A stretch of DNA of 64,000 bases from a virus (IMGVR_UViG_3300038968_000070:59914-123913); one strand, 5' to 3'; positions 33,754 to 63,850 are shown, counted from the first letter of the stretch. The notes: generated by a model from the sequence alone, not told the origin. Numbers and translations: made by a program.

Positions 33754-34905
33754 TCACCGTCGATGCCGACGACGACGTCGCGAGCCGCTGATCGACGGTG
33801 TCGGCTCCGCGTCGACACGCGTCTTCTTGCGCCGCGCGTCGCGACGCTCCGTGGCGTAGCGGAACACGTTGATGAGCGCCGTCGACGCCACCGCGCCCGC
33901 GCTGAGGATGCCGAGCATGTACATGCGGTCCTGGTGCATCTTCAGCTCGTGCACCGCCGCGGTCGCGGGGTCCATCGGCGGCGCGCCGTCGGCGGTCGCG
34001 GTCTCGGCGCCCAGGACGTTCGCCATCGGGCCGGCGATGCCGGGGCGTCGATACGCAGGCGCAGCGCCCTTGCCCCACGGCGTCATGAACGCCGGGTCGT
34101 TCGGCGTCGGGCGACCGTGCGGCGGCGCCCACGGCGCCGGTGAGTAGGCGCCCTCCTTCATGGGGATCCACTGCGACATGACCGGCGTGTAGCCGTACTG
34201 CGTTGACAGCTGCATGTCCGTCGGGACGGCGCCCATGCCCGGGGTCGGGCAACCGACGCCGGCGGTGCGGCACGTGAACCGCGCGAGGCGCCCCAGCACG
34301 CCGTTGGGCTCGTAGGCCGACGTCCGGTCCTGCCGGTAGTTCGGTCCGCGCTCGGGGCGATCGGTGCAGTACGCCTGCGGGCCGAAGTCCTTGGTCGCCG
34401 CGACCATCTCGAAGCTCGGGTACGGGCTCCGGTCGCCGTAGGGGGCGAGGACGATGCCGAGGGCGCCGAGGGCGCTGTTGACTTCCTGGCGTGACGCGAC
34501 TCGGAAGTTCTCACGGAAGACGTGCCCGCGTCGCGTCGCCCCGCTCAAAGTGCCCTTGAGCGCCTCGATGGTGCCGTAGGGGTCGAGCACGCGCTTGACG
34601 CGCGTGGCGGCGGCGGTCGTGAACGCCTCGGCGGAGGCCGCCCGGCGCGTGAACGACGCCGTGGGCGCCGGCGACGCCTCGGCCGCCGGCCCCGTCTGGA
34701 TCATCGTCGACGCGCGCTGGACGCCGTCGACGAACTTGCCCGGTGGGAACAGGTAGTACCGCTGTTGCGCGGCACGCGCCGGGTTCTCACAGCCGACGAC
34801 GCCGTTGCCGGCGGCCGTGGGGCCGGTCAAGAGCACCGTCGTCGTGCCAGGGGCGACGCCGACGGCGGTGGGCTGACCAGGGGTCGACTCGATGGCGGTC
34901 TGCAC
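33754..34905 (-). CDS. putative virion protein with TM and poly-Arg tail
   Basis: VGVAPGTTT; GMGA, VLGA; TM; SISGSRRRRRHRR. Confidence 0.75.
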   Translation of the reverse strand: MQTAIESTPGQPTAVGVAPGTTTVLLTGPTAAGNGVVGCENPARAAQQRYYLFPPGKFVDGVQRASTMIQTGPAAEASPAPTASFTRRAASAEAFTTAAATRVKRVLDPYGTIEALKGTLSGATRRGHVFRENFRVASRQEVNSALGALGIVLAPYGDRSPYPSFEMVAATKDFGPQAYCTDRPERGPNYRQDRTSAYEPNGVLGRLARFTCRTAGVGCPTPGMGAVPTDMQLSTQYGYTPVMSQWIPMKEGAYSPAPWAPPHGRPTPNDPAFMTPWGKGAAPAYRRPGIAGPMANVLGAETATADGAPPMDPATAAVHELKMHQDRMYMLGILSAGAVASTALINVFRYATERRDARRKKTRVDAEPTPSISGSRRRRRHRR

Positions 34906-34909
34906 GGGG

Positions 34910-35371
34910 TCAGCGTACCACAGCGGGCCCGGGGCCCGCTACGGCGCCGCGTAGGCGGCGGTCCTCCGCCACGACCGCGTCGAGGATGTTGTTGAACGCC
35001 GCGAACGACGCCGGGTCGCGCCATGCAGTCGTATTGAAGACACGCGCGAGCGTCCGTGTGTACTCGGTCGTGAGCCCGAGGTCGACGACGAGGAGCGGTG
35101 CGAACGACAAGCGCCCGAGCTTGCGGTGGTCGCCGCGCTCGCGGCGGTACTCGAACATGTACCAGTTGAGGCGCGCGTAGGGGTCGAGATCGTCGAGCGG
35201 GTCGTGGAACAACCCGTCGCCGAGGCCGTAGCCGACCGCCCGTGTGACGTCGCGTTTGCGCTCCGTCGCCGCGTGTCGCGCTTCGAGCAGCGTTCTTGCA
35301 GAACCCGCGCGCCAGCACGCCCACCGAGCGTTCAACGCGCGGATCAAGTTATCGCTGACGTGGTCATGCAC
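34910..35371 (-). CDS. family 1 paralog
   Basis: DPYARL; FNNILDAVVAEDRR. Confidence 0.65.
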   Translation of the reverse strand: MHDHVSDNLIRALNARWACWRAGSARTLLEARHAATERKRDVTRAVGYGLGDGLFHDPLDDLDPYARLNWYMFEYRRERGDHRKLGRLSFAPLLVVDLGLTTEYTRTLARVFNTTAWRDPASFAAFNNILDAVVAEDRRLRGAVAGPGPAVVR

Positions 35372-35870
35372 TGCGTGGCTCCTGCCGCCGGCGCGCCGCC
35401 GTCTCGACCGCCGCTGCGATGATGTTGTCGAGCGCGGCACGGTCCTCTTGCCTCGACCAGTCGGTCGTCATGTATGCCTCTCGAACGGCGTCGGTCAGGT
35501 CAGCCCAGCACCGTAGCGTCAGGTCAGCCCAGCACCGTAGCGCAAGATCGTCGACGAGGAATCCGCTCATGATCCGGCGCGCCGGGCGCTCGGTGCTGAG
35601 GAACATGTAGTCCCACAGCCGTGAGTACGGATCGCGGGCGCCCCCGCCGGTCAACGCGTGTTCGACGGCGCGCGTTGGGTCGGTCACCCGCGCGTCGTGC
35701 AGCGCATTCCAGATCGCCCAGCGATGTCGCAGTGCTGTGCGTAGCGTGGGCACATCGGCGATCGTCACGAGCGTATCATATAAGAATACGCGGACGAACG
35801 CAAACCTGGCGCGCCAGCGGGCGGGGACCGTGAACGTCGTCGTGCCGGGTGCGGTGCCGACTACCGGCAC
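35364..35870 (-). CDS. family 1 paralog with capsid-like N-terminal peptide
   Basis: VGTAPGTTTFT; DPYSRL; LDNIIAAAVETAARR. Confidence 0.65.
   Translation of the reverse strand: MPVVGTAPGTTTFTVPARWRARFAFVRVFLYDTLVTIADVPTLRTALRHRWAIWNALHDARVTDPTRAVEHALTGGGARDPYSRLWDYMFLSTERPARRIMSGFLVDDLALRCWADLTLRCWADLTDAVREAYMTTDWSRQEDRAALDNIIAAAVETAARRRQEPRSA
35494..35541. repeat. perfect 24-bp tandem duplication GTCAGGTCAGCCCAGCACCGTAGC x2
   Basis: Read directly; in frame (LRCWADLT x2). Confidence 0.9.
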
Positions 35871-36194
35871 TTCGCGACCGCGGTCCGGCGGCAGCGGTAG
35901 CGGCTCTGCGGCCCGCGCTTCACGAGCGACGCGCGAGCCTTCGCGGCCCACTTGCGGTACTGCTTGTTGTACTTCTTCTTCCAGCCCTTCTTCGTCTTGA
36001 TCGTCGCGACGTGCTTCTGCCCGTCGGCGCCGACGTAGGTGCAGACCTGCCGGTAGTGCGTCGCGGTCGGCTTCAGCCGCTTGCACTTGTACTCCTGGCT
36101 CTCGTAGATCGGCGCGCGCCGGGGGGCCGGGGCCGATCTTGCGAGTCCTTTTGAACGGCTGGTGCGAGTCGTCGATACGGCGGGGGGTGGCCAT
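35861..36194 (-). CDS. basic Cys-containing protein, probably frameshifted at a C6 run
   Basis: GC3-rich frame switches at 36121-36126. Confidence 0.5.
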
Positions 36195-36226
36195 GTGGGC
36201 ATGTTATCGCGCCGTTGCCCGATGGT

Positions 36227-39698: not shown

Positions 39699-40436
39699 AT
39701 GCAGCGCTCCATCTTCCGTTCGCCGTTGTTCTGGGGAGGCGTGGGCATTCTCGCGGCTGGCACCGCCGTCGCGTTCCACCGCAAGCGGGAAGCGTTGCTC
39801 GGACGTGAGAAGGCGGGGCCGGAGCCGTTCTTGGTGCAGAGGAACAACGCGACGATCCCCCCACCGACCCAGGTGACGAAGGCAGGCGGGTACACGGCGC
39901 GGCGGTATACGACCGACCGTTTCTCGATTGACCAACGTCTCCGCTTGATCCAGGAGAACGTGTTCACCGGCATTCAGGACGGACGCATCCGTCATCTCGC
40001 TGGGCAGCTGACGAAGCATTGCGGGCGTGACGACGGCCCGTGTGAGGTGCAAGCGGTGTTCGACGCGGTGCGGAAGCACGTGCGTTACAGTGGAGATGTC
40101 GGCCCGGTGATCGATCCGAAGACGGGCGTCGTCGACGGTGTGGACCTCTATGCGTCACCTCATCGCGTGTGGACGTCGCAGATCGGCGACTGTGACGACC
40201 ACGTCGCGTTGATCGCATCGCTCTTGGCGATCATGGGGCACGAGGTCAGGCTGCGTGTGACGGCGCCATCACGCTTTGGTGAATTCGCCCACATTTACGC
40301 GGCGGTGGGGACCCCGAAGATCGGGCCGAGGAAGTTTCGTGCGGTCGACACGACGTTGCCCTGGCGGAACGCGAACGTCGGTAGCGAGGCGAAGTACGGT
40401 CGCGCGCGGGACTACGTCGTCGAGGTCCCGGCTTAG
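39699..40436 (+). CDS. transglutaminase-like cysteine protease with N-terminal TM
   Basis: VRYSGD, GDCDDH, HIY, VDTT (Cys-His-Asp triad). Confidence 0.85.
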   Translation: MQRSIFRSPLFWGGVGILAAGTAVAFHRKREALLGREKAGPEPFLVQRNNATIPPPTQVTKAGGYTARRYTTDRFSIDQRLRLIQENVFTGIQDGRIRHLAGQLTKHCGRDDGPCEVQAVFDAVRKHVRYSGDVGPVIDPKTGVVDGVDLYASPHRVWTSQIGDCDDHVALIASLLAIMGHEVRLRVTAPSRFGEFAHIYAAVGTPKIGPRKFRAVDTTLPWRNANVGSEAKYGRARDYVVEVPA

Positions 40437-41090: not shown

Positions 41091-41435
41091 ATGGCTCGTC
41101 GTCGAAAGCGTCTCGGTGCTACCAAGCGCGTGCACCACCACATGGCTGAAGATCACATGACGAAGGCACGCAGCGCGATCAACAAGGCCGTCGCTGCGCT
41201 TCGACGTGGGAGCTGCCACGGCGCGCACTTGCACCTCGCGGAAGCGCACGAGGAGATCGGCGCGAGCCACGCGCACGGGCGCAGCCATGGCCAGACCGCA
41301 TGGCTCCCGCAGCGTGCGCTCATGGACGTCAACGGCAAGTTCAACGACCTCTGCATCGTCCCCGACAAGGTCGACGTCGGTGCGAACTGGTCGCCCGCGC
41401 TCGCGCGAGCCCGTCGGAAGCGGCGCCGGCGCTGA
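41091..41435 (+). CDS. small basic protein (GxC family, Arg tail)
   Basis: RRGSCHGA; ARRKRRRR. Confidence 0.7.
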   Translation: MARRRKRLGATKRVHHHMAEDHMTKARSAINKAVAALRRGSCHGAHLHLAEAHEEIGASHAHGRSHGQTAWLPQRALMDVNGKFNDLCIVPDKVDVGANWSPALARARRKRRRR

Positions 41436-43167: not shown

Positions 43168-43434
43168 ATGGCCAAGCTCAACCCCGACGCCTCCGCCGCC
43201 ATCTCCGCCGCTCGCGCCGGCCGCTGCCGCGACGCGATGAAGCACCTCTACGACGCCTCGCCGCACGTGCAAGGGCGCGGCTGCGACAGCATGACGTCGG
43301 CGGAAGCCAACGCCTATCGGCAAGCCAACCTCGTCGTCGCGGGGCTGTGCACCGTGCAGACGAAGCCGAAGCACTACAAGTCGACCGGCTTCGACGGCGC
43401 GCGCCGCCGGCGGCGCCGCACGCGCCGCCGGTGA
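43168..43434 (+). CDS. small basic protein (GxC family, Arg tail)
   Basis: RAGRCRDA; FDGARRRRRR. Confidence 0.7.
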   Translation: MAKLNPDASAAISAARAGRCRDAMKHLYDASPHVQGRGCDSMTSAEANAYRQANLVVAGLCTVQTKPKHYKSTGFDGARRRRRRTRRR

Positions 43435-43732: not shown

Positions 43733-44044
43733 ATGAAGACCGAGTGCCGGCTCCCGGCGTACTCCGACGATCCGCTCACGCTCACCGGCTGCGCGACCGC
43801 GAAGGGCGTCACGCTCTGCGTCGGCGATCGCGTGCATCGTAAGCTGAAGGGCTGGACGCACCGTCAGGGTGAGGTCATCGCGCTCGCGATGGGGCGGGAC
43901 AACAACGGTCGTCCGAAGCAAGCCGCGCGCGTTTGCTTCGACACCGACGAGCCCGGCGACCTCGCCTACTCGTACTTGTTCGAGGAGCTGGCGCCGGTCA
44001 AGAAGCGCGCGTTGAAGGGCGCGCGTAGGCGGCGCCGTCGGTGA
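43733..44044 (+). CDS. small SH3-like protein with Arg tail
   Basis: VGDRV..GEV..VCFD; LKGARRRRRR. Confidence 0.65.
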   Translation: MKTECRLPAYSDDPLTLTGCATAKGVTLCVGDRVHRKLKGWTHRQGEVIALAMGRDNNGRPKQAARVCFDTDEPGDLAYSYLFEELAPVKKRALKGARRRRRR

Positions 44045-44511
44045 CGATCTCCCCCGAAGAGCTTGCCTGGCGGCGTGACTTCAGCGCCGACCGTAGCGCG
44101 AGTGACCTCGTCCGCGAGATGTCACGGCTGCGCAGCAAGCAGCCGCGGCCGCTTCTCAAGCTCTACCGGAACCCGACGCCCGAGCAGCGCGCGGCCTGGG
44201 ACGCCGTCAACAAGCAGTACAACCGGATGATGAGTCACTTGCGCAAGGTGCACAAGATCGCGCTCGCGCGCGACAACGCGCGCTTTCGTAGCGGTGGCGT
44301 CGGGCGTACGCGTCGCCGCGAGTTGATCCCCGGTGGCCTCGCTCCGCGCGGGCGGTGTCCGCGCGACGTTCTCAAGAGCGAGCTGCGCAAGGGCATCAAG
44401 GTCGAGATGGAGCACACGCGCTCGCGCCGCGTCGCACGCGAGATCGCCTGCGACCATCTCACTGAGGATCGACGCTACTACACGAATCTGGCGCGGATCC
44501 ATCGCGAGTGA
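44041..44511 (+). CDS. DUF5661-like protein
   Basis: LRKGIKVEMEHT..AREIACDHLTE..YY. Confidence 0.7.
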   Translation: MTISPEELAWRRDFSADRSASDLVREMSRLRSKQPRPLLKLYRNPTPEQRAAWDAVNKQYNRMMSHLRKVHKIALARDNARFRSGGVGRTRRRELIPGGLAPRGRCPRDVLKSELRKGIKVEMEHTRSRRVAREIACDHLTEDRRYYTNLARIHRE

Positions 44512-47138: not shown

Positions 47139-47849
47139 ATGTCCATGGGCACCGTCGGCGTCGCACCCGGCACCACCACGTTCACCCTCCAGGACGGCAC
47201 GGTCATCAGCCTCGCCGACTGGATCGACGATCGCGTCTTCAGCACGATCCAGCTGAGCAACGGCCAGTCCGGCTCGCTGGAGTGCTTCGGCGCGGGCCTG
47301 TCGCAGCAGATCCCCGGCGGCACGCGCACGCTGACGTCGGCGGACACCAACCTCCAGCGGCCGGGCTCGAACGGTCTCCCGCAGGCGTACGAGCTGCTCG
47401 TCTTCTCGATCGGCATCGACTTCGTGCGCGCGTGCCGGCCGCAGACGGGCCAGTCGCAGCCGGTCATCGGCGACAGCTCGGGCGCGCTCTCCGAGGCGCT
47501 CCGGTACTCGACGTTCTTCGGCATCAACCGCCTGACGAACGTCCAGTTCAAGTACCGCGAGAAGACGTACGCCGAGGGCGTGCCGGTGAACTTCCCGAAC
47601 GGGCGCGGCGCGTGGATCGACGTGACCACGTCGGACTTCGAGGTCGTGAACAACGGCCGCCCGGACCCGCGCTCGCGCAACTCGATGGTGCTGCCCATCC
47701 GGCTCCAGGAGAACCTGAGCTTCAAGCTCGTGTTCGCCCCGCAGTCGCCGCTCGTGATCTCGCAGGACGCGACCGACGGCGGCACGGACCTGACGTTCGT
47801 CGACGCCAAGGGCGAGCTGAACGGACTCTACAAGCGCCCGGTGGTCTGA
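47139..47849 (+). CDS. candidate major capsid protein (jelly-roll-type, inferred)
   Basis: Beta-rich 236 aa; AGGAG RBS; strongly biased codons; followed by terminator; no HK97 features recognised. Confidence 0.6.
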   Translation: MSMGTVGVAPGTTTFTLQDGTVISLADWIDDRVFSTIQLSNGQSGSLECFGAGLSQQIPGGTRTLTSADTNLQRPGSNGLPQAYELLVFSIGIDFVRACRPQTGQSQPVIGDSSGALSEALRYSTFFGINRLTNVQFKYREKTYAEGVPVNFPNGRGAWIDVTTSDFEVVNNGRPDPRSRNSMVLPIRLQENLSFKLVFAPQSPLVISQDATDGGTDLTFVDAKGELNGLYKRPVV

Positions 47850-47985: not shown

Positions 47986-49632
47986 ATGCCTCAGCCGTTG
48001 ATCGACTTGACCGGACGGCGGTTCGGTCGGCTCGTCGTCTGCTTTCGCGCGCCCGCGGAGCCGGGCAAGAAGCCGCAGTGGGTCTGCAAGTGCGACTGCC
48101 CGGCACAGACGATCAGGATCATCTACGGCTACTCGTTGTTGCGTGGCGACTCGACCTCGTGTGGCTGTGCACAACGCGAGGGTATGTCGGCGCGCCGCAC
48201 GAAGCACGGACGGCGGCGGATCGCGGATCCGGGTGCGTTCGGTGAAGACCGACGTACGCGTAGCTCAACGTACGGCTCGTGGTCGGCTATGAAGTCACGG
48301 TGCAAGGACCACCCGCGCTACGCCGGGCGCGGGATCAAGGTGTGCCCACGGTGGCTCGGGCCTACCGGCTTCGACAACTTCGTTGCGGACATGGGTGAGT
48401 GTCCCGAGGGGATGTCGCTCAACCGGTTGAGCAACGCAGGCAACTACTGCGCGGCGAAGTGCGGCGGCCTTTGTGGACACACCGAGAGCAACTGCGAGTG
48501 GGCCACGCACACGAAGCAGATGCTCGATCGTGACCACATCCGGCGCTTCACCGACGACGAGGTAAAGGACATCGTCGCGCGCACCGTCGCGCGACAATCG
48601 CAGGAGCACATCGCGCGGGTGTACGGCGTCGGTCGGCGAGTGATTCGACGCGTCCTCCGCGACGCGTTCGCGACAGCGCCGCGTACGCCTACGAAGGCGC
48701 CGTCGCATCGCGTGCGGCTAACACGTGAGGTTGACGTCGCCGGGCATATCGCCGCCCTCCGTCGTGACGGTTTCCCGTGGGCTGCGCTGGTGGATGATGA
48801 AGGTGACTCGCTCGCGCTCGTTCGTGCGGCCAAGGTTACGGTGCGCGGCGACGAAGTCGTGTCCATCAGCGGCGCCGGGCAATGGACGTGCCTCGACGCC
48901 AATCGACATCGGTTCGACGCGCGGCATCTCGGACAGCCGTCGGTCGTGGCGGCGTTCGCCGATGACGAAATCCTCGCACGTGCGATCAGGTACAGGATGG
49001 ATCGGGGGTACCGCATCACGGCCCGCGCTGTCTTGCGGACGCTTCGCGCGATGATTCACGCCCCGAGCAACTTCCCGCCGGCACTCGCGCGTTGGCTTGT
49101 CGACGAGTACGCCCCTGAGGGTGGCGTTGTCCTCGACCCGTGCGCCGGGTTCGGCGGGCGACTTCTCGGCACCGTCGCGAGCGCGCGCAACGCGCGCTAC
49201 GTCGGCTTCGATGTCGAGCCGCGAACCGTCGAGGGCAACCGCGCGCTTGCCTCGCGGGTCGGTGTTGCCGATCGAGTCGATGTTGTGTGCCGTAGCGCGG
49301 TCGCACCTACCGTGTGGCCCCGCGCCGACGTCGTCTTGACCGGGCCGCCGTACTTCAACTTGGAGGACTACGGCGACGCCTCGCGTGTCTTGCACGCGGC
49401 TTACGAGGACTGGCGTGACGACTTCCTTTGCGGGCTCATCACGCGCGCACTGGCGGCCGCGCCGGTCGTGATCCTCAACGTTGCGCACGTCGGCAAGCAC
49501 GACATGCCGGCGGACGTGTGCGAGATCGCTAAAGGTTTGGGCGCGCGCGTGGCGCGTGTCATCACGTGGCCGCTGCGAGAATTCAACCGGCGCAGCCACC
49601 CTGAGAAGATCCTCGTGCTGCGCGCGGCGTGA
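47986..49632 (+). CDS. HNH-type endonuclease-like domain + HTH + amino-DNA methyltransferase fusion
   Basis: DLTGRRFGRL..SCGC..YAGRGIKVC..NCEWAT; LDPCAGFGGR; TGPPYFNLEDY. Confidence 0.8.
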   Translation: MPQPLIDLTGRRFGRLVVCFRAPAEPGKKPQWVCKCDCPAQTIRIIYGYSLLRGDSTSCGCAQREGMSARRTKHGRRRIADPGAFGEDRRTRSSTYGSWSAMKSRCKDHPRYAGRGIKVCPRWLGPTGFDNFVADMGECPEGMSLNRLSNAGNYCAAKCGGLCGHTESNCEWATHTKQMLDRDHIRRFTDDEVKDIVARTVARQSQEHIARVYGVGRRVIRRVLRDAFATAPRTPTKAPSHRVRLTREVDVAGHIAALRRDGFPWAALVDDEGDSLALVRAAKVTVRGDEVVSISGAGQWTCLDANRHRFDARHLGQPSVVAAFADDEILARAIRYRMDRGYRITARAVLRTLRAMIHAPSNFPPALARWLVDEYAPEGGVVLDPCAGFGGRLLGTVASARNARYVGFDVEPRTVEGNRALASRVGVADRVDVVCRSAVAPTVWPRADVVLTGPPYFNLEDYGDASRVLHAAYEDWRDDFLCGLITRALAAAPVVILNVAHVGKHDMPADVCEIAKGLGARVARVITWPLREFNRRSHPEKILVLRAA

Positions 49633-49711: not shown

Positions 49712-50212
49712 ATGGGCCGTCTCGCACAGAGCTTCGCGGGTCTTCAGATCCAGGACATGTTCCCGTACGCGATGAAGACCCAGCTCACGTTGGGTCCGAG
49801 CGTCAGCGCCCGGAACTTCCCCAACGCGGACTGGCTCAACACGCAAGATCACCCCTTCGCGGTGCACCGGCTCACGGTGCGCATCATCGCGCTCGACGAG
49901 AACGGCCTCGTCGTCGCGTCGCAGCCCGACATCGAGACGCGCGAGGCGCTCGTTCTCCTCGGCTTGCTCCTTCAGGGCTTCAACCAGCCCATGACGAAGG
50001 ACGCAACGCCCATCGAGGTCGGCAACCTCCTCGGTGGCACCACGAGCGAGCGCTACTGGCGCTTCGAGGAGCCGTTCGTGCTGCCCAACAGCTACGGCGT
50101 CGTCGCCACCGCGACCACGCTCGCGTTGCCGGCGGGCGTCTCGTACACGCAGCTTCGCATCACCCTGGTCTGTCAGGGTTTTCTCCTCCAGGTCACCAAG
50201 CCCAACGGCTGA
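49712..50212 (+). CDS. candidate second (small) jelly-roll capsid protein
   Basis: Beta-rich ~166 aa; PF(AV)HRL..EPFVLP..ITLVCQG pattern parallels 47139 protein. Confidence 0.5.
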   Translation: MGRLAQSFAGLQIQDMFPYAMKTQLTLGPSVSARNFPNADWLNTQDHPFAVHRLTVRIIALDENGLVVASQPDIETREALVLLGLLLQGFNQPMTKDATPIEVGNLLGGTTSERYWRFEEPFVLPNSYGVVATATTLALPAGVSYTQLRITLVCQGFLLQVTKPNG

Positions 50213-50226
50213 TCGGCCAACGCCGC

Positions 50227-50562
50227 ATGGCCAACCACATGATCACGATCGTCGGGACGACGGATCTCCTTCCGTCGACCTCGACCGCGAACGACGTCGG
50301 CCCGTTGGTGACGGCGCCTAACGACAAGTTCGTTCGCGCCCTGATTCGCAACACCGGGCAGTCGGACGTGTTCCTCGGCTTCACGACCGCGGCTGTCGTC
50401 GGCAACCCGGGCGCGCAAGCGGCGTATCGCCTGCCGGCAGGACAATCCGACGTGTTCGTCCTCACGCCGCGTCAAGCGCTGTACGCGACGTCGGTCGGCG
50501 GCGGCGGCCGCGTGTCGTTCGCTGTGTCGCAGGCGTTGCCCATCGATATGAGGGTGGGCTGA
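50227..50562 (+). CDS. small beta-sandwich structural protein
   Basis: IRNTGQSDVFLG..YRLPAG. Confidence 0.6.
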   Translation: MANHMITIVGTTDLLPSTSTANDVGPLVTAPNDKFVRALIRNTGQSDVFLGFTTAAVVGNPGAQAAYRLPAGQSDVFVLTPRQALYATSVGGGGRVSFAVSQALPIDMRVG

Positions 50563-50565
50563 CGT

Positions 50566-51393
50566 ATGTCGATCCAGAGCCTCGTGACGTACCAGCAGGC
50601 GCTCGCCGCCGGCGATACGTTCTGGCGCCTTCAGATCTCGAATTGGGGCAACCGCGAAACCGGTGCGGATGCTAACAGCATCCAGTACACCGGGGCCGTC
50701 GACGGTGCGCAGTACGTCACTATCGGCCCCGAGAGCACGGCGGACGAAGTGATCGTCGGTTACAGCGCGCCGTCGACCTTCAACCGCGCGTTCACAATCC
50801 CGAACCCGGGGTTCCAGAATCAGATCTCGATGACCGTCGGGATCACGCGGCCTGGCGTCATGCTCCCCGGTCCGCTGACGATCCGTACGGCGATGTCGAC
50901 GCAGTTCTGCGACAGCTACTTCCGCGACGGTAATCCGATCGTGCAGAACTTCGGTGGCTTGGAGCCGCTCTTCGAGGCGCCGAGCCTTCAGCTGCTCGTC
51001 TACCCGTACGTCCCGACGATGCCCGCGCTCCCCAAGCGCGCAGACCTGTACCGACACGCGCAGACCAGCGCGGACGCGGACGTCGGCGACGAGACGTTGA
51101 TCGCGATCTGGCCGGTCATGGGGCGCAGTTGCAAGGCGCTCTACTTCCGCGCGACGAATGACCTCGTCGCGACCATTCGCGTCGGCGCGATTTCGTACTT
51201 CACGCAGACCGTTGTCGGCAACCCGTCGCCGCGTGCTGTCGAGGACACTGTCGCGACCGCGGATATCAACGCGACGACCGGCGTACAGGAGTCGATCATC
51301 ACCGGTCGACCGATGCAGTGGGTCGCGGTGTACTACACACGGACGAGCGGCACCGGGTTCATCAACACCAACCTCATCGCGCAGGATTGCTGA
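50566..51393 (+). CDS. putative vertex/structural protein
   Basis: Beta-rich; structural operon. Confidence 0.6.
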   Translation: MSIQSLVTYQQALAAGDTFWRLQISNWGNRETGADANSIQYTGAVDGAQYVTIGPESTADEVIVGYSAPSTFNRAFTIPNPGFQNQISMTVGITRPGVMLPGPLTIRTAMSTQFCDSYFRDGNPIVQNFGGLEPLFEAPSLQLLVYPYVPTMPALPKRADLYRHAQTSADADVGDETLIAIWPVMGRSCKALYFRATNDLVATIRVGAISYFTQTVVGNPSPRAVEDTVATADINATTGVQESIITGRPMQWVAVYYTRTSGTGFINTNLIAQDC

Positions 51394-51728: not shown

Positions 51729-53423
51729 ATGGCCAAGACGTTCAACGCGGAGCGGGTTTCTCTCGGTACGGGCGCGCCCGAGCTTTTGTCAGGCGCCGCC
51801 GATCCGTCGGCCGGCGCCGGCGTCGCGGCACCAGTCGGGTCGGTGTACCTCCGCAGCACGACCGACGAGCTGTGGCAGAAGTTCGGTGTCGCAGACACGG
51901 ATTGGGCGCTCGTCGGCGGGTCGAGCCTTGTCGGCTTCACGACGGCGACCGACACCGCGCTTGGTGTCGGCGCCGGTGACGCGCTCACGACCGGCGCGCG
52001 CAACGTGGCCGTCGGTACCGACGCGCTCGGCGCGCAAACCACGTCGAATGACAGCACCGCGCTCGGGTACAACGCGTTACTCCTCGCGACCACGGGACCG
52101 AATACGATGGTCGGCAGCCTGGCGGGCGCCGCGATCACGTTGGGTCCTCGTAATACCGGCGTCGGATTCAGCGCGCTCGGCGCGTTGCAGACGGGTCAAG
52201 ACAATACAGCCGTTGGGCATTTCGCGCTCGCGACGTCGACGGGGAGCAACAATACGGCGGTGGGCACCTTCGCACTTACGGGGGTCACCACGGGCACGCA
52301 GAACACTTCCGTGGGCGCGAACGCGCTCGGCGCTGTCTCGACCAACGGAAATTGCACCGCTGTTGGCGCGCGCGCGCTCGCCGTCAACACGGCTGCCGAT
52401 AACACCGCCGTCGGCGCTAACGCGCTCGACGTCAACACGAGCGGTACGCAGAACACGGCCGTGGGCCGCAACGCGCTCGGCGCGATCACGACGAACGGGT
52501 CGTCCACCGCCGTCGGACATCACGCGTTGCTATTCGCGACCGGGTCGTCGAACACCGCCGTGGGCGCGCTGGCCGGCGATGCCGTCACGTCGGGCTCGCA
52601 GAACACGATGGTCGGGTACAACGCGGGCAGCGCGTCGACCGTGGCCCAGAACGTCACGGCCGTCGGTTCCAACGCCGCCGCGGCGAACACGGCGAGCGGC
52701 ATCACGGCCGTCGGATACAACGCGCTCACCGGCAACACGAGCGGCATCAACAACACGTCCGTCGGCAACCGTTCGCTCGAAACCATGACGCTGGGCTCCA
52801 ACAACACCGCTGTTGGTGGCGCCGCACTCTTGAATTCGGGCTCCGACGACTGCACCGCCATGGGCTACCTTGCCCTCTTCAACGTGACCAGCGGCTCGCA
52901 GAACACGGGCATCGGCACCAACGCTGGCGACACCATCACGACGGGCGCACGCAACACGATCCTCGGTGCTGGCGCGGACGTGGATGCCGGCACGCGGACG
53001 GGCGCGATCGCGATCGGTATCTCGGCGGCCGGAACGGGCGCCACCGCTACCGTCGATGACGGCCTCTTCTTCCACACCGCGCTCGCGACGGTCTCCGGCA
53101 CTGCGGTCGAGTACGACGCCGCAACCGGTCAGATGGGACCGATCGCCAGCTCGCGGCGCTTCAAGACCGACATCGAGCCGCTCGGACGTGACGTCGACTC
53201 GTCGAAGGTCTTCGATCTCCGCGAGGTGAGCTACACGCTCAAGTCGAACGGCGCGCACGAGATCGGCCTCATCGCCGAGGAAGTCGCGGAGCTGTACCCG
53301 CAACTCGTTCCGCTCGACAACGAAGGGCGCCCGCAGGCGGTCAAGTACGACCGCGTGGTCGTGCTCTTGCTCGCGGAGCTGCGCAAGCTGCGCGACCGCG
53401 TGGCGCAGCTCGAAGCACGCTAG
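51729..53423 (+). CDS. spike/fibre with NTAVG beta-roll repeats and C-terminal peptidase S74 intramolecular chaperone
   Basis: Many ~14-aa NTAVGxxAL repeats; SSRRFKTDI..IGLIAEEV..VKYD..coiled coil. Confidence 0.88.
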   Translation: MAKTFNAERVSLGTGAPELLSGAADPSAGAGVAAPVGSVYLRSTTDELWQKFGVADTDWALVGGSSLVGFTTATDTALGVGAGDALTTGARNVAVGTDALGAQTTSNDSTALGYNALLLATTGPNTMVGSLAGAAITLGPRNTGVGFSALGALQTGQDNTAVGHFALATSTGSNNTAVGTFALTGVTTGTQNTSVGANALGAVSTNGNCTAVGARALAVNTAADNTAVGANALDVNTSGTQNTAVGRNALGAITTNGSSTAVGHHALLFATGSSNTAVGALAGDAVTSGSQNTMVGYNAGSASTVAQNVTAVGSNAAAANTASGITAVGYNALTGNTSGINNTSVGNRSLETMTLGSNNTAVGGAALLNSGSDDCTAMGYLALFNVTSGSQNTGIGTNAGDTITTGARNTILGAGADVDAGTRTGAIAIGISAAGTGATATVDDGLFFHTALATVSGTAVEYDAATGQMGPIASSRRFKTDIEPLGRDVDSSKVFDLREVSYTLKSNGAHEIGLIAEEVAELYPQLVPLDNEGRPQAVKYDRVVVLLLAELRKLRDRVAQLEAR

Positions 53424-54452: not shown

Positions 54453-54545
54453 CTAGCGCCTGCGGCGCCGGCGCGCCTTGAGGCACTGCCCCTTGCGGCG
54501 GCCCCGCTTGACGACTCCGAAACGACACTTGCGCTTGCCGGCCAT
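54453..54545 (-). CDS. 30-aa protamine-like peptide
   Basis: MAGKRKCRFGVVKRGRRKGQCLKARRRRRR; GGAG RBS; own terminator. Confidence 0.7.
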   Translation of the reverse strand: MAGKRKCRFGVVKRGRRKGQCLKARRRRRR

Positions 54546-56830: not shown

Positions 56831-57153
56831 ACGAAGCGGCGGCGCTCGCGGCGTGGCACGCCGCGCTCGCGGACGTGCGTGTGATCCGGTTCGAATGGGA
56901 CGAGAACCTGGCGTTACCGCCGGTGGTCGAGTGGATTGAAGCGACGGACGGCGAGCGGCGGTACAAAGCGTTGCTTCACCCGTTCGGCGACCGCTTCGAG
57001 GTGTACGCGACCGATCGTGATGACGTCACGTTCTTCTTGCGTTCGGTCCGAACACGGTTGGACGGTCGCTTACCGCGCTCGCCGCGCGAGGTCGTTGATC
57101 GTCTCCGTCACGCTGACGGCGGCTTCGTGTCGGGTGACTTCGGCGTTCGCTGA
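56827..57153 (+). CDS. family 2 paralog
   Basis: LAAWHAALA..VIRFEWDE. Confidence 0.65.
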   Translation: MNEAAALAAWHAALADVRVIRFEWDENLALPPVVEWIEATDGERRYKALLHPFGDRFEVYATDRDDVTFFLRSVRTRLDGRLPRSPREVVDRLRHADGGFVSGDFGVR

Positions 57154-57181
57154 CGCACCCCTCTGCTACAATCGCCCCGTC

Positions 57182-57526
57182 GTGAGCCTCTACGTCGAGA
57201 ACATCCCGACCGGCGCGCCGGTGCTCGTGGTCCTGGTCGTCCAAGAGGGCTGCGGCGCCTGCGACGAGTACAAACCGATCTTCGAGAAGATCGCCGAGCC
57301 GTACGCCAAGCGCGGCCTGCCGATCTACAAGCTCGACGCCGGCAGCGAGGACCCCGACGCGCAGGCGTTCATGAACCGGCACGGGGTGGAATCGACCCCG
57401 ACCGTCATCGCCGCGACGCTCTACCGTGGCCCCGTCGCCCGGCTCGAAGGCGTGTCGAGCGAGTACGAGACGCGACAGCTCCTCGACGTCGCGTGGGCGC
57501 ACAATCGGCCGGTGAGCATCTGGTGA
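57182..57526 (+). CDS. thioredoxin-like protein
   Basis: CGAC; YKLD; GVESTPT cis-Pro loop. Confidence 0.85.
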   Translation: MSLYVENIPTGAPVLVVLVVQEGCGACDEYKPIFEKIAEPYAKRGLPIYKLDAGSEDPDAQAFMNRHGVESTPTVIAATLYRGPVARLEGVSSEYETRQLLDVAWAHNRPVSIW

Positions 57527-60439: not shown

Positions 60440-60446
60440 AGGGGGT

Positions 60447-60501: not shown

Positions 60502-61398
60502 ATGGGCCTGCCCCCCGCGAGCGTCCTGTTCCAGCCGGTGACCTGTATGCCGGCGTGGGTCGGCAAGTACGCCTTGCTGCCCAACACGACGGTGGCGTCG
60601 GGGTGCAGCACCGCGAACGGCAACGTGCAGTGCGACCCGCGCGCGATGGCGACCGCGGCCGCGAAGAAGACGGGACTCCCCGTCACGCTCGAAGCGTACA
60701 CGCTCGCACGCTACGTGACGTCCGAGGTCGGGACGCGCAGCGTGCCCGAGCGCGTCGCCGTGTTGCAAGCAGCGCTCAACCGCGCGCGGTACGTCGAGCG
60801 GCTCCCGAGCGTGCTCAACCTGTTGCTCTACCGCCAGTCCCCGACGGGGGCGCAGGCGGCGCACCGTGGCTACTACGGACCGATCCACAGCGGCGGTGAT
60901 CTCGCGGCGCCGTACGGTCGATGGGCGTCGACGGCGCGCGACCCGGCGTACTCGAACATCGCGCTCGCGATCGCGGTCTTGAACGGCGAGATCCCGGAGA
61001 GCTTCTCGAAGGGCGCCGACGACCAGTACGGGCCGGAGATCTTGGTCACCAAGCAAGGGCTCGCGGTGACGCAGAACGGCGTCCGCCGGCGCGGCGGCGA
61101 GCATCGCTATTGGGTCGGCCCGCTCCCCGGCGTCGACCACATGCGGACGTTCCTCTACACGACCCGGCGCGACATCTCGCCGACGTCGCCCGAGGGCAAA
61201 GCGCTCATCGAGCGCGGCGTCGCCGCGATCAGCTCCGGTCGCCCGAACTGGTCGGGCTTGACCGTCTGCGCCGCGGAGCCGGGTATGCTCGACACGCCGG
61301 GCGCCAAGGCGGCGGCGGTCGTGGTCGGCGGTGCGACGGCGGCGGCACTCGCGGTGGTCGGCGCGGCGGTGTGGCGGCGGCGTCGGGTGATGGTGTAG
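60502..61398 (+). CDS. SleB/Hydrolase_2-like cell-wall hydrolase with C-terminal TM
   Basis: TLARYVTSEVG..AVLQAALNRA; TM then WRRRR. Confidence 0.65.
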   Translation: MGLPPASVLFQPVTCMPAWVGKYALLPNTTVASGCSTANGNVQCDPRAMATAAAKKTGLPVTLEAYTLARYVTSEVGTRSVPERVAVLQAALNRARYVERLPSVLNLLLYRQSPTGAQAAHRGYYGPIHSGGDLAAPYGRWASTARDPAYSNIALAIAVLNGEIPESFSKGADDQYGPEILVTKQGLAVTQNGVRRRGGEHRYWVGPLPGVDHMRTFLYTTRRDISPTSPEGKALIERGVAAISSGRPNWSGLTVCAAEPGMLDTPGAKAAAVVVGGATAAALAVVGAAVWRRRRVMV

Positions 61399-61408
61399 GC
61401 TGGTCGGT

Positions 61409-61807
61409 ATGGCGACGTACTCCGTCATGGGTTGCACCGGTGCGATGGCCAAGCGCTTCACCGACCCGCGCAAGGCGATCAAGTTCGCGCGGCAGTGCGC
61501 CCGTAAGGGGCACACGCCAGTCAACGTGAACACGGTGCGCAAGCGTTCGTTCGGCCCCGGGGAGTCGTTCGAGACGATCTTTCGGTGCATCGACGCACGG
61601 CGCATGTCGAAGCGCGGCAGCAAGACGACGATCAAGTGCGGCCCTACGTACAGCAAGCACGCGCATCATACGGACTACGCGTCGTGGGAACGTCAACAGC
61701 GCGCCGACGGCTACCTGAAGGGCGCGCGCAAGCGGCGCAGCAAGTCGTGTCCGTCGAACGTCGGCAAGACGCGCGCGCCCAAATCGCTTCGTCGGAGGCG
61801 CCGATGA
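61409..61807 (+). CDS. basic Cys-containing protein with Arg tail
   Basis: YLKGARKRR..LRRRRR. Confidence 0.7.
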   Translation: MATYSVMGCTGAMAKRFTDPRKAIKFARQCARKGHTPVNVNTVRKRSFGPGESFETIFRCIDARRMSKRGSKTTIKCGPTYSKHAHHTDYASWERQQRADGYLKGARKRRSKSCPSNVGKTRAPKSLRRRRR

Positions 61808-62136
61808 GCGGCGCGGTGCTCCCAGCACCGTCACGTGAGCTGGTCGCCAAGGCGGCGGCGCGGTACGTGACCGGCGAATTCACCACGTTCCGTGACTGGC
61901 TCAGCTACGAAGACGAGCTGGCCGCGGAGTGGCTCAAGGACCCCGCGTTCACGTGCACTGTCGAGTACGCGACGCTCAAGGTCATGGAACAGATCCGCTG
62001 GAAGACGCAGATGTCATCGATCGCGGCCGAACACGGCGGCGGCGCCAAGGGTGTCGCTGTCGTCGTCGGTCGTGTCGTCGGTGAGTGGGTCGCCGGCGGC
62101 ACGACGATCGATCGTGAGCTACAGACCTGGGGCTGA
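61804..62136 (+). CDS. hypothetical protein
   Basis: GGAGG RBS; ATGA overlap. Confidence 0.55.
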   Translation: MSGAVLPAPSRELVAKAAARYVTGEFTTFRDWLSYEDELAAEWLKDPAFTCTVEYATLKVMEQIRWKTQMSSIAAEHGGGAKGVAVVVGRVVGEWVAGGTTIDRELQTWG

Positions 62137-62139
62137 TCC

Positions 62140-62238
62140 ATGACCACCGCCATCCTCCCCATCCTCGCCGTCCTCGTCAGCTGCGCCGGCATCGCCGTCG
62201 TCGGCATCGTCCTCGACAAGCACGCGAGGAAGCGCTGA
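62140..62238 (+). CDS. 32-aa single-TM peptide
   Basis: MTTAILPILAVLVSCAGIAVVGIVLDKHARKR; TGATG coupling. Confidence 0.55.
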   Translation: MTTAILPILAVLVSCAGIAVVGIVLDKHARKR

Positions 62239-63098
62239 TGCCCGGCGAAGACCCCAACGTCGGCGATCGCGGCCACGTCACGCCGCTGCCTGGCACGAAC
62301 GCCGGGCCGGTGATCGACCGACTGTGGGCTGTCCCGCCGCGCACTGGCGGTGGCGGTGGCCCCGTACCGACGCGGACGATACCGTCGGGCTACCGCCAGT
62401 GGCCGACGCGGCGTCTTGGCGCCATGCTGGGCGCCGTGTCGGGATGGCTTCCATTCGCGGCGTTGGCCGCGGTCTGGGCCGGCGCCGTCATGTACGGCGC
62501 GCACCGCAGCCGCGGGCGGCTTCGTGGTGCGCGTCGAAAGAGTGACAAGATGCGCGACCAAGCCCGGCCCGAGGCGGTCGGCTACGAGCTGGATCGTGAG
62601 ACGCTCACACCGACGCGTCGCGTGATCGACACCTCTGCACCCGGTGACTACGGCGCCGACCCGATCGGCGACGGGCTCTTTCGCATGGTCCCGAGCGGTG
62701 ACATCGTCGACTTCGAGGAGCGCAATCGGCGGCTAAAGAAGCCGCTGCGCGGCGCGCCGCGGCGCTTACACGGCACGGACGACGACGACGACGATACCGG
62801 TCTCACGTTCACGCAGCGCTTCCGACGGGGGCAGCGACGCGCCGGCATCCAGACCTACACCGAAGGAAAGTGGACGCCCTTCCGTGCCGGTGAGCGTGTC
62901 ACGACCATGATCGTCGAGACGCCCGCCGGTGTGTGGCAGGCGAAGGTTCACAAAGACGGCTCGTGGTCGGTGCGTGGCCCCGACCCCGACAACGAAGCTC
63001 ACTACGGATCCGGTGAGGTCACCGCCGACACCGATCGTGAACTGGTGACCCTCGCCAAGAAACAAGCACGGGCGTTCCTCAAGGCGCGCTTGGGATAG
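62238..63098 (+). CDS. multi-module protein with TM and LxG linkers
   Basis: RLGAMLGA, RLRGARRK, PLRGAPRRLHG. Confidence 0.7.
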   Translation: MPGEDPNVGDRGHVTPLPGTNAGPVIDRLWAVPPRTGGGGGPVPTRTIPSGYRQWPTRRLGAMLGAVSGWLPFAALAAVWAGAVMYGAHRSRGRLRGARRKSDKMRDQARPEAVGYELDRETLTPTRRVIDTSAPGDYGADPIGDGLFRMVPSGDIVDFEERNRRLKKPLRGAPRRLHGTDDDDDDTGLTFTQRFRRGQRRAGIQTYTEGKWTPFRAGERVTTMIVETPAGVWQAKVHKDGSWSVRGPDPDNEAHYGSGEVTADTDRELVTLAKKQARAFLKARLG

Positions 63099-63108
63099 GA
63101 GCACCGCC

Positions 63109-63390
63109 ATGCCCTGGAAGAAGCTCAAGGTCGATCGCGGGTGGCCCGCCACGTGGCAGCGCTGCGGCAAGAACGCCAGCGGCCGTGAATACTGCGTCCT
63201 CATGACGAAGGAGAACGGCAAGTTCCGGTGGGGCTGGACGCAGGACAAGCACGAAGTCGACCCCATCAACGGGTGGTCGCGCGTCGTCGGCGGCTCCGCG
63301 CGCAAGACGAAGGAGTACGCTGACGACTACCTTCGTTACCTCGTCGGCAAGGGCGGCACGCTCGGGCGTCGCGGGCGGAGGCGGCGATGA
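63109..63390 (+). CDS. small protein with Arg tail
   Basis: AGGAG RBS; TLGRRGRRRR. Confidence 0.7.
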   Translation: MPWKKLKVDRGWPATWQRCGKNASGREYCVLMTKENGKFRWGWTQDKHEVDPINGWSRVVGGSARKTKEYADDYLRYLVGKGGTLGRRGRRRR

Positions 63391-63584
63391 GCTTGCTCGC
63401 CGACCTCAAGTCCGCGTTCCGCCGCGGCGACTGCGCGACCGCCCGCGCGATCGTCAGCAAGATGAACGTCCGCGCGAAGACGCCGGCCGAGCGCGAGCAG
63501 ATCTACCGCTTGCAAAACGCCGTGCGGCGTTGCCGCGTTCGCGGCGTCGCGGGCGTCAGGCGTCGCCGCAGGCGGCGGCGCTGA
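63387..63584 (+). CDS. small basic protein (GxC family, Arg tail)
   Basis: RRGDCATA; VAGVRRRRRRRR. Confidence 0.7.
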   Translation: MSLLADLKSAFRRGDCATARAIVSKMNVRAKTPAEREQIYRLQNAVRRCRVRGVAGVRRRRRRRR

Positions 63585-63598
63585 AGGAGAAAAACGTC

Positions 63599-63850
63599 AT
63601 GCCGATCCGCCGTACGACTTCCACCTCGCGCGCGTTGAACGACGTGCGCGCCGCCGCCTACCTCGCCGATGTGGGGCGCTGCGACGAGGCGAAGCGCAAG
63701 CTCGCCTTCGCCGAGGCGGTTCTCGACACGGCGTCGGGCGGCCAACGGCGCGCGCTTCGTGACGAGATCAAGGCCGCGCGGGGCTCGTTCCGTTCCTGCG
63801 GCATCACGCTCGCGGGTGCCCGGCGGCGCCGGCGCAGGCGCCGCCGGTGA
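63599..63850 (+). CDS. small basic protein (GxC family, Arg tail)
   Basis: AAGGAG RBS; VGRCDEA; LAGARRRRRRRR. Confidence 0.7.
   Translation: MPIRRTTSTSRALNDVRAAAYLADVGRCDEAKRKLAFAEAVLDTASGGQRRALRDEIKAARGSFRSCGITLAGARRRRRRRRR

Follow-up and report, generated by a model that had tools for sequence, protein, structure and literature searches.

We found that about a dozen mostly unrelated proteins of an uncultured virus share a terminal run of arginine residues preceded by a hydrophobic-x-glycine hinge. The virus is probably a tail-less, membrane-containing phage. This Arg tag is real, kept by selection and movable between proteins: selection acts on the peptide, true C-termini are enriched in it, it has a Gly hinge, and it moves from protein to protein and from one terminus to the other. 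The comparison of orthologs supports the view that the Arg tail is a peptide label of a portable kind. The Arg runs are best read as lineage-wide, portable polybasic end-tags, and there is, in our judgement, an even chance that these keep diverse small proteins and membrane proteins attached to the packed DNA or to the acidic inner membrane. What the tag binds (DNA or membrane), whether its bearers are in the virion and whether it is removed are matters of inference.

Results

Proteins carrying the Arg tag

The genome is 124 kb long, with 216 called genes and a 103-bp terminal repeat, and the same tags are found in relatives (contigs of 77-132 kb). The window, that is, the whole stretch of DNA analysed, comprises 64,000 nucleotides. 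The nine tails listed in the earlier note on this DNA were all found at the positions it gives, including the two at 41091 and 54453 that have no Gly hinge (ARARRKRRRR and CLKARRRRRR), and further tails exist. The tagged genes are as follows.

33754..34905, minus strand: 383-aa protein with the tail ..ISGSRRRRRHRR, in which ..AEPTPSISGS is followed by RRRRRHRR
41091..41435, plus strand: 114-aa basic protein with the N-terminal leader MARRRKRLGA and the hingeless tail
43168..43434, plus strand: 88-aa protein with the tail ..FDGARRRRRRTRRR, in which FDGA is followed by RRRRRRTRRR; coding-type GC3 of 0.93
43733..44044, plus strand: 103-aa protein ending in LKGA and R6
44041..44511, plus strand: 156-aa protein with an internal ..GGVG-RTRRR-ELIPGG junction
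54453..54545, minus strand: 30-aa protamine-like miniprotein with 53% Arg+Lys and two Cys, ending in ..CLKARRRRRR
61409..61807, plus strand: 132-aa protein with tandem tags, ..YLKGARKRR and then SKSCPSNVGKTRAPKSL and R5 (end ..SLRRRRR)
63109..63390, plus strand: 93-aa protein ending in GGTLG and RRGRRRR; its stop overlaps the next start (ATGA)
63387..63584, plus strand: 65-aa two-helix, two-Cys protein ending in VAGV and R8
63599..63850, plus strand: 83-aa protein ending in LAGA and R9
63847..64000, plus strand: start of a 265-aa protein that crosses the 103-bp terminal repeat to genome position 747, with the tail ..IAGPRRVRRRSRTRS
40002-40145, 50087-50233, 50238-50648 and 52276-52500, all minus strand: further tailed genes in the other half of the genome, beyond the list of the earlier note

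In the 33754 protein, a VGVAPGTTT arm at the N-terminus resembles the arm of the capsid protein; the protein also has an internal SLKG..R-rich junction and, ahead of the tail, a C-terminal membrane helix. In distant relatives, what follows the internal junction is encoded by a gene of its own. The 63847 protein has its membrane helix at the N-terminus, carries RRRRRLGAT and a HELAH motif, and ends in IAGP with RRVRRRSRTRS. The body of the 43733 protein looks like an SH3-like barrel, which we take as a lead only. Many proteins of the genome have a pI of 11.5-12. The tagged proteins had been regarded as dissimilar, but some of them may be related: a loose pattern of two helices and two Cys is common to those at 41091, 43168, 63387 and 63599, though a profile search gave no support for kinship.

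Enrichment of Arg runs and of the hinge at C-termini

In this genome, at least six Arg in the last eight residues were found in 9 of the 216 genes and in 0 of 33,944 internal 8-residue windows. At least five were found in 14 of the 216 genes, compared with an internal frequency of 0.1%. In the pooled statistics, which are not fully independent because orthologs from different genomes were counted separately, strong tails made up 4.0% of called genes and 1.1% of Arg-rich shadow ORFs of six related genomes, and a hydrophobic-(x)-Gly-(x) hinge preceded 45% of real tails and 9% of shadow tails. Hydrophobic-x-Gly is thus enriched ahead of C-terminal Arg runs over shadow frames, a comparison that the earlier note had called for. 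Among 1338 proteins, Gly stood at -1/-2 in 47% of strong tails and before 13-17% of internal basic runs (Fisher's test: p ~6e-6 when all 77 tails were compared with internal runs, 1e-7 when strong tails were compared with all positions), and the hinge was present in 42% versus 7-9% (p ~1e-7 and 6e-12 for the same two comparisons). Compared with internal basic runs or with the Arg-rich shadow frames, the tails have Gly one or two residues ahead of them three to five times more often. The generic LG and LxG motifs noticed earlier at module boundaries occur at chance level: [LFM]G in residues 3-13 is present in 10.8% of proteins, with 10.5% expected.

The tails are more biased to Arg than the basic residues of the proteome in five of the six genomes (0.90 versus 0.72 in this genome). 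The hinge is not obligatory, since only about 45% of the tails have it, and this counts against a label acting by charge. So does the number of tags per genome, which among relatives ranges from 2 to 13 and rises with G+C.

Conservation and mobility of the tag

The tail of the 33754 protein is kept in 31 orthologs, down to 37% identity, as ..AEPxPxISGx followed by R4-11; ISG is near-invariant in them, and the following residue and the length of the run vary. The Arg codons of the tails differ between orthologs, and Arg itself is retained. The 54453 miniprotein is kept in the relatives G002 and G004 (56-63% identity), and the orthologs of the 63387 protein in L059, L039 and G001 all have basic tails.

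The tag also changes its place. In one relative, the ortholog of the 43733 protein has an N-terminal leader, MARRQRRRSRGLGS, instead of the C-terminal tail; in another, SLRGAKRRR is internal, and the second domain beyond it ends in an R6 tail of its own. The tag persists inside proteins formed by fusion of two modules. The DUF5661-like C-terminal part of the 44041 protein is a separate gene in G001, where it starts with MAARRKHRELIPGG. At locus L039, a homolog of the 63109 protein is fused to a homolog of the 63387 protein, with the hinge retained and the Arg run lost. The tail module of the 61409 protein is better conserved than its body: only this module aligns with the G001 ortholog, and it recurs on an unrelated family, as the end of P0032, the most distant ortholog of the 33754 protein. 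The tag is, like a terminal cargo peptide, a short terminal peptide common to unrelated proteins and transferable between them. In the earlier note the Arg tail was proposed to be a portable tag for DNA binding and encapsidation; of this, the portability is borne out by the conserved tail, the changing codons and the swap of terminus.

Enzyme encoded at 39699

39699..40436, plus strand: 245-aa transglutaminase-fold enzyme with an N-terminal membrane helix and Cys165-His198-Asp217

A membrane-anchored Cys-His-Asp enzyme had been noticed at this position, and the analysis agrees: the protein has the N-terminal helix, a transglutaminase/LapG-like fold and a triad (C165, H198, D217) that is invariant in 49 homologs. 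Its match to Pfam PF01841 (E 6e-4, 20.5 bits) is below the 23-bit cut-off, and most of its homologs carry PF01841. The AlphaFold2 model (pLDDT 90.8) shows the papain-like transglutaminase core fold, and Foldseek matched this model with probability 1.0 to PNGase, LapG, putative Cys proteases, transglutaminases and PeiW; PeiP was also matched. The enzyme, a core gene product of the lineage, has a conserved juxtamembrane motif of basic residues and then L-x-G(L)G directly after the membrane helix, and an extra conserved Cys pair, C108 and C115.

A six-frame search of this genome (G000) and four relatives gave no match at E<=1 to adenain (PF00770, Peptidase_C5) or Ulp1-like (PF02902, C48) proteases. 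The C39 peptidase (PF03412) gave none at E<=1 in G000-G005, and the control genomes responded. The only Cys-His-Asp enzyme found is of the transglutaminase fold, not of clan CE. Because this fold family includes PNGase amidases, transglutaminases and the phage pseudomurein endoisopeptidases PeiW and PeiP, a role in the cell wall or in cross-linking is as likely as proteolysis. The "eukaryotic-virus-like core maturation" of the earlier note is an analogy only, since no C5, C48 or C39 peptidase is detectable in these genomes and the transglutaminase fold is not specific to proteases. Cutting of the tag at the hinge Gly by this enzyme is a hypothesis.

Capsid candidate and gene neighbourhood

47139..47849, plus strand: major capsid protein candidate, 236 aa (context gene)

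The gene at 47139 is the most conserved of the lineage, and its product has no Arg tail. The best structural matches of its model (pLDDT 88) were the single jelly-roll capsid proteins of SPV1, HHIV-2 and HCIV-1, with modest Z scores of 6.9-7.4 and Foldseek E-values of at least 0.009. The predicted structure thus most resembles, at a modest level, single jelly-roll capsid proteins of internal-membrane viruses of the Helvetiavirae or Portogloboviridae type. In the icosahedral SPV1 (Sulfolobus polyhedral virus 1, Portogloboviridae), the capsid proteins are single jelly rolls, a membrane lies inside the capsid, and the genome is condensed by a nucleocapsid protein of the virus (PMC8459092). Each of the 14 strong tails of this genome is no more than 17 kb away from one or other of the two capsid-protein paralogs, in the company of membrane-anchored proteins. 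In the relative G003, about 27 kb separates the cluster of tagged genes from the capsid gene, which counts against a charge label. Walker-A proteins are encoded in the genome.

Discussion

The tag most likely acts by charge. It would be a disordered stretch of 5-10 Arg/Lys, linked by a short hinge (a hydrophobic residue, any residue, Gly and often one small residue) to diverse bodies: small Cys-containing miniproteins, an SH3-like barrel, a membrane protein with a HExxH motif and a tail-anchored protein whose N-terminal arm is capsid-like. Such a tag may tether its bearer to the phosphate backbone of the viral genome or to the adjoining anionic face of the internal membrane. By binding the genome or the adjacent membrane, the tag would gather the diverse, rapidly evolving small proteins at the DNA, and these would finish in a nucleoprotein core. 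The tags of membrane proteins would link them to the DNA, and condensation of the 124-kb genome may be helped by the protamine-like peptide of 30 aa along with further proteins of pI 11.5-12.

This charge reading is suggested by the enrichment of tails and hinge at true C-termini, by the conservation of the peptide while Arg codons change, by the swap from C- to N-terminus between orthologs with retention at fusion joints, and by the 61409 tail module, which outlasts its body and recurs on the P0032 family. It is also consistent with the Arg bias of the tails in most of the genomes, with the many proteins of pI 11.5-12, including the conserved 30-aa protein, with the position of the strong tails near the capsid paralogs among membrane-anchored proteins, and with the resemblance of the capsid model to capsid proteins of internal-membrane viruses, of which SPV1 has a nucleoprotein core.

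One point against this reading is that acidic lipid, RNA and acidic protein patches are equally good targets for a polybasic tail.

The tag may instead be a cleavable loading signal, as the earlier note proposed. The 39699 enzyme would then cut at or just after the hinge Gly, in the manner of adenain or T4 gp21, and both the mature proteins and short poly-Arg peptides would be set free within the particle. The h-x-G-(small) hinge is five times enriched beside tags, ISG is near-invariant ahead of a variable residue and run in the 33754 orthologs, and tags persist at joints of modules that are separate elsewhere, which gives a polyprotein-like look; the enzyme itself is a core gene product with an invariant triad, its own basic and L-x-G(L)G motif after the membrane helix, and LapG and other proteases among its best fold matches. 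However, the amidases, transglutaminases and PeiW/PeiP of the fold family, the lack of a hinge in more than half of the tails and its lack of enrichment after N-terminal basic leaders (19% versus 14%, p = 0.29) argue against cleavage, as do the presence of the enzyme in all relatives regardless of tag number and the site of LapG, between two Ala in TAAG, which is unlike the hinge. We consider cleavage unlikely. Another reading is that the tagged miniproteins are not virion cargo but intracellular effectors for host takeover or anti-defence, the tag targeting the host nucleoid, ribosomes or RNA, or the inner side of the cell membrane. Their bodies evolve so fast that for most of them no ortholog can be detected even in G001, a relative of 126 kb with core proteins of 50-90% identity; they are small and diverse, as is usual for accessory host-interaction proteins; and in G003 they form their own cluster apart from the capsid gene. 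This reading is quite improbable, because in the present genome they are interleaved and translationally coupled (4-nt overlaps) with conserved structural-module genes, among capsid, spike and membrane protein genes, and because the same tag ends membrane-anchored module proteins (33754, and 63847 onwards).

That the tails are a by-product at the nucleic-acid level, G+C-rich Arg codons serving as a Shine-Dalgarno or coupling region or as a ribosome brake before the stop and the peptide having no function, would fit the overlap of 6 of the 14 strong tails with the next start by 4 nt (ATGA/GTGA), three more ending 4 nt ahead, the GGAGG inside the 61409 and 63109 tails, and the excess of AGG (3 times) and CGG (1.8 times) in tails over the Arg codons of the genome. 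But five tails have 14-235 nt to the next gene, Arg is retained across orthologs despite codon change, the tag may be N-terminal or internal, tails are 3.7 times commoner on real genes than on Arg-rich shadow frames of the same DNA, and a ribosome-binding site needs 1-2 Arg codons, not 6-9. We consider a by-product very unlikely. We also give very little credence to a translocation signal by which a motor, such as an FtsK-type packaging ATPase, might pump tagged proteins into the membrane vesicle. Basic C-terminal signals mark type IV secretion substrates, and the terminal positive charge common to unrelated proteins and the Walker-A proteins would suit such a signal, but no packaging ATPase was identified in this genome. 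Since the tag occurs at either terminus and internally, plain charge binding fits better than a directional signal.

In the published literature, such a tag was found in no paper. Adenain processes adenovirus pVII, pX/mu and pVI (with its basic C-terminal peptide pVIc) at (M/I/L)-x-G-G↓x or (M/I/L)-x-G-x↓G, Gly being needed at P1 or P1'. The phage resembles adenovirus in its very basic small proteins, in its terminal basic peptides beside hydrophobic-x-Gly-x and in its virus-encoded, membrane- or DNA-associated cysteine enzyme; the adenovirus basic peptides associate with packed dsDNA, and their phage counterpart is proposed by analogy to do so. In contrast to adenovirus, the phage has no detectable clan CE protease, its enzyme is of transglutaminase fold, the hinge Gly is followed by Arg or a small or otherwise variable residue rather than by the Gly of adenain sites, and its capsid protein is predicted to be a single, not double, jelly roll. 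LapG, which works in the periplasm, depends on calcium and cleaves its adhesin substrate between two Ala, shares the fold and the Cys-His-Asp triad of the 39699 enzyme; the phage enzyme differs in its N-terminal helix anchor and its extra Cys pair. T4 gp21 removes the N-terminal capsid-targeting sequence (CTS) after loading, and encapsulin cargo carries C-terminal cargo-loading peptides (CLP). These are likewise short, portable terminal peptides common to unrelated proteins; however, they bind a specific pocket of the HK97-fold shell or scaffold and are not polybasic, whereas the phage tag is a plain charge run at either end, with a predicted jelly-roll capsid over a membrane. The likeness to SPV1 lies in the capsid candidate, which has the SPV1 capsid protein as its top match (Z 7.4, modest, with no sequence similarity seen); SPV1 differs from the phage in being archaeal and 20 kb, with one filament-forming core protein (VP1) and no family of end-tagged miniproteins. 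Protamines and the capsid proteins of small viruses, such as the hepatitis B core protein with its C-terminal domain, have terminal Arg runs, like the phage proteins, and these neutralise and retain nucleic acid within the particle. In those systems the tail is on the single capsid/core protein, whereas in this dsDNA phage the tag is spread over a dozen accessory proteins and the capsid protein is untailed.

The virus and its relatives

The record comprises 123,913 bp at 68% G+C, of which the window is the final 64 kb, and carries a 103-bp direct terminal repeat. Genes were called with our own codon-model script, trained on long ORFs of the same genome; it gave 216-217 genes, and the real genes have GC1 > GC2 << GC3, as expected. 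No near match was found among the deposited phages of the phage collection at the DNA or protein level. Uncultured relatives of the genome are many, and the comparison set consisted of five whole relatives (G001-G005, 77-126 kb), metagenome loci and MAG contigs. In the literature searched, neither the lineage nor a poly-Arg tag is described.

The most conserved gene encodes the capsid protein candidate, which is 90% identical to its G001 counterpart and about 50% identical to those of distant relatives. Its AlphaFold2 model is a beta sandwich (pLDDT 88), and the top three structural matches, at modest Z scores of 6.9-7.4, are the capsid proteins of SPV1, HHIV-2 and HCIV-1. These are internal-membrane viruses with single jelly-roll capsids, and the model resembles their proteins modestly. 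About 12 proteins of the region end in a single terminal membrane helix. Taken together, the capsid model matches and the membrane-helix proteins suggest that the virus is likely a tail-less icosahedral phage with an internal membrane. The other half of the genome encodes a second capsid paralog (31% identity). The N-terminal peptide of the capsid candidate, VG(V/T)APGTTT, also starts the tail-anchored 33754 protein (proteins are named by the window start coordinate of their genes) and two others. The coordinates for this peptide and for the capsid paralog are:

47139-47849 (+), capsid protein candidate, 236 aa
33754-34905 (-), tail-anchored protein
35364-35870 (-)
genome 48204-48947 (-), in the other half

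Several observations concern the surroundings of the capsid gene. Between it and the conserved 49703 gene lies 47986-49632, whose 548-aa product contains an N6/N4 DNA methylase domain; G001 has no homolog at the corresponding place. The 564-aa product of 51729-53423, a spike or fibre protein, ends in an intramolecular chaperone domain (Peptidase_S74, E 2.6e-9) and matches PHROG tail spikes; the particle thus has a fibre-like receptor-binding protein, although no tail genes were seen. On a 78.6-kb Tessaracoccus sp. MAG contig (L064), the capsid protein is 91% identical to that of the window and its neighbours only 35-57%, identities that indicate strong mosaicism around the conserved capsid gene. 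This MAG is from a wastewater plant, and contigs of the lineage occur in activated-sludge and soil samples; the MAG bins point to Tessaracoccus and Gemmatimonadota as host leads. Another relative (L066:1-20705) lies at 3.705-3.726 Mb of the 4.7-Mb Gemmatimonadota MAG chromosome CP070815.1. Its capsid protein is 48% identical to that of the window and 65% to that of G003, its closest relative, and the viral region directly adjoins ordinary metabolic genes; the virus may have integrated there, which would point to a host, or the junction may have arisen in assembly.

Arginine tails at true C-termini

The poly-Arg tails quoted in an earlier note on this DNA are all present, the 54453 item being a 30-aa gene on the minus strand. 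Beyond these, four tails were found in the other half of the genome; an extra tail belongs to a 265-aa protein whose gene starts at window 63847 and extends over the terminal repeat as far as genome position 747. Pfam and PHROGs gave no match for the tagged proteins or for most of their neighbours. In this genome, at least 6 Arg occur in the last 8 residues of 9 of 216 genes, as against 0 of 33,944 internal windows, and 11 of the 15 runs of at least 5 Arg lie within four residues of a C-terminus, 8 of them at the very end. When six genomes were pooled, strong tails were found on 4.0% of called genes and 1.1% of shadow ORFs. Shadow frames are richer in Arg than real genes, yet shadow ORFs carry fewer strong tails.

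The segment before the Arg run is also distinctive. Among 1338 proteins of the lineage, Gly stands one or two residues before 47% of strong tails and 13-17% of internal basic runs, and the hinge, hydrophobic-(x)-Gly-(x), precedes 42% of strong tails as against 7-9%. Fisher p-values range from about 6e-6 to 6e-12 by motif and comparison, and are somewhat too good because orthologs from different genomes were counted separately; the enrichment is nevertheless large and falls on unrelated proteins. The proposed enrichment of hydrophobic-x-Gly plus an Arg run at true C-termini over shadow frames is clear, whereas generic LG/LxG motifs at N-termini or at the module boundaries noted earlier occur at chance level. 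After N-terminal basic leaders, enrichment of the hinge was not significant. Capping of a helix C-terminus was considered as a general reason for the Gly and rejected, since by eye the residues ahead of several hinges (..STGFDGA, ..GKGGTLG, ..CGITLAGA) do not resemble a helix; it may still apply to others. As to kinship among the 41091, 43168, 63387 and 63599 proteins, their alignment has an apparent common two-helix, two-Cys pattern, but a profile of the 63387 family reaches the others only at E>0.2, which does not support kinship.

Acidic runs, sought as partners of the tags, number only three in this genome. Runs of 5-6 Asp occur in two proteins, 31281-31664 and 62238-63098 (..SDDDDDTG.., ..GTDDDDDDTG..), one of which starts with the repeated basic leader MTRKRKGAPRKRKGAPRKR.

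The tail behaves as a portable peptide

Comparison among relatives bears out the suggestion that the Arg tail is a portable peptide tag: it is conserved with differing codons, changes terminus and is retained at module joints. Orthologs of the 33754 protein number 31, with identities as low as 37%, and almost all end in ..AEPxPxISG, one variable residue and 4-11 Arg; the Arg codons vary between orthologs of this gene and of three other tagged genes. An ortholog of the 43733 protein (..ALKGA+R6) at 58% identity has no C-terminal tail and begins with MARRQRRRSRGLGS, and another, at 77% identity, has an internal SLRGAKRRR followed by about 50 residues that close with a second R6 tail. The 61409 protein carries two tandem tags, and its G001 ortholog can be aligned only over the tail module; this tail type, C..N[VI]GK..APK..L..RR, also closes the remotest ortholog in the unrelated 33754 family. 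That family has a conserved internal ..SLKG and an Arg-rich spacer of very variable length, and in distant relatives the portion after the spacer (LGIVLAPYG..) is a separate gene. Similarly, 44041 reads ..GGVG-RTRRR-ELIPGG, and the matching stretch in G001 is the beginning of a gene of its own, MAARRKHR-ELIPGG. A fusion of the 63109 and 63387 homologs in the relative locus L039 has retained the hinge and lost the Arg run, and in L064 the 43471 homolog has gained a GGVG+RARRKGR tail.

The tails favor Arg more strongly than do the remaining basic residues of the proteome in 5 of 6 genomes. Of 14 tails, 9 touch or overlap the start of the following gene, and tails use AGG and CGG to excess; tail DNA therefore serves translational coupling in part. 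Such use at the nucleotide level is ruled out as the full explanation by the 6-9 Arg, by the tails that have no downstream gene nearby and by the N-terminal and internal tags.

The transglutaminase-fold enzyme

39699-40436 (+), transglutaminase-fold Cys-His-Asp protein, 245 aa

This protein has a membrane helix at its N-terminus and scores just below the cut-off for Pfam Transglut_core, a domain carried by most of its at least 350 homologs, which lie on contigs up to about 180 kb. Cys165, His198 and Asp217 are invariant in 49 sequences. The structure model is confident (pLDDT 90.8) and matches PNGase, LapG, putative cysteine proteases, transglutaminases, the CPR-C4 protease and PeiW/PeiP, the last being phage pseudomurein endoisopeptidases. 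The fold is thus compatible with protease, amidase, cross-linking or cell-wall peptidase activity. Just past the membrane helix the family has a conserved motif, basic residues followed by L-x-G-(L)-G, which looks like the tag read backwards and might be where the enzyme processes itself. Since every relative has the enzyme, regardless of a tag number that ranges from 2 to 13, its co-occurrence with the tag says nothing.

Possible function of the tag

The earlier note saw in the tails a tag for DNA binding and encapsidation, with a protease cutting at the Gly motif. The most likely mechanism is that of a portable polybasic label acting by charge. Such a label would keep the proteins that carry it attached to the packed genome or to the neighbouring acidic face of the membrane, and the protamine-like miniproteins would condense DNA. 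This reading is favored by the extreme charge density and the Arg preference, by a conserved 30-aa protein that is 53% basic, by the position of all strong tails here near two capsid paralogs among membrane-anchored proteins, and by the indifference of the tag to the terminus that carries it. SPV1, which has a nucleoprotein core (PMC8459092), offers a precedent. In G003 the tagged genes are clustered far from the capsid gene, which counts against a charge label, and the fast turnover of the bodies of tagged proteins would suit intracellular effectors equally. Cleavage at the hinge would be a reasonable addition to the charge label, if an unlikely one. It seems quite unlikely that large bacterial jelly-roll membrane viruses, as a widespread lineage, build a protein-loaded nucleoprotein core through a cleavable poly-Arg tag on unrelated cargo, trimmed at the Gly hinge by a transglutaminase-fold protease.

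By analogy, the tag system may work like adenovirus core proteins and pVIc, the targeting peptides of encapsulins and T4, or protamine-type tails. It belongs to neither the adenain nor the C39 type, since searches of the six genomes for the proteases that define these, and for Ulp1-like peptidases, detected none. If the core with a cleavable tag were real, it would be a bacterial system convergent with the core maturation of adenoviruses or poxviruses, and the tag would be a natural label, portable by genetic means, that marks a protein for packing with the DNA. If the tag loads proteins onto the packaged genome, this would explain how a large tail-less phage is filled with varied accessory proteins, by a very simple natural address label of a Gly hinge and 6-9 Arg. 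It would also give bacterial membrane-containing viruses a set of DNA-condensing proteins, a kind of set that the literature searched does not describe for them. Whatever its function, the tag singles out a group of rapidly evolving miniproteins within a virus lineage that is uncultured and abundant.

Other proteins of the module

The 265-aa ORF (window 63847-64000 plus genome 1-747, L061:1-747) reads through uninterrupted when the 103-bp terminal repeat is counted a single time. Its features are a membrane helix at the N-terminus, RRRRRLGAT, a conserved HExxH motif (HELAH) and the Arg-rich tail at its end, and it may act in the virion module as a second peptidase, one that depends on a metal. 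Searches of Pfam and PDB sequences gave no match for it; Atlas gave weak leads, and there was a weak DA1-like structural lead. All five relatives conserve a thioredoxin-like protein (57095-57526), whose Pfam E of 1.6e-4 falls short of the cut-off. Cys pairs are conserved in many of the module's small proteins, such as ..GYGDCANNCR in 42407 and ..CKYNCR in 43471, and the virus may form disulfides in its own virion proteins.
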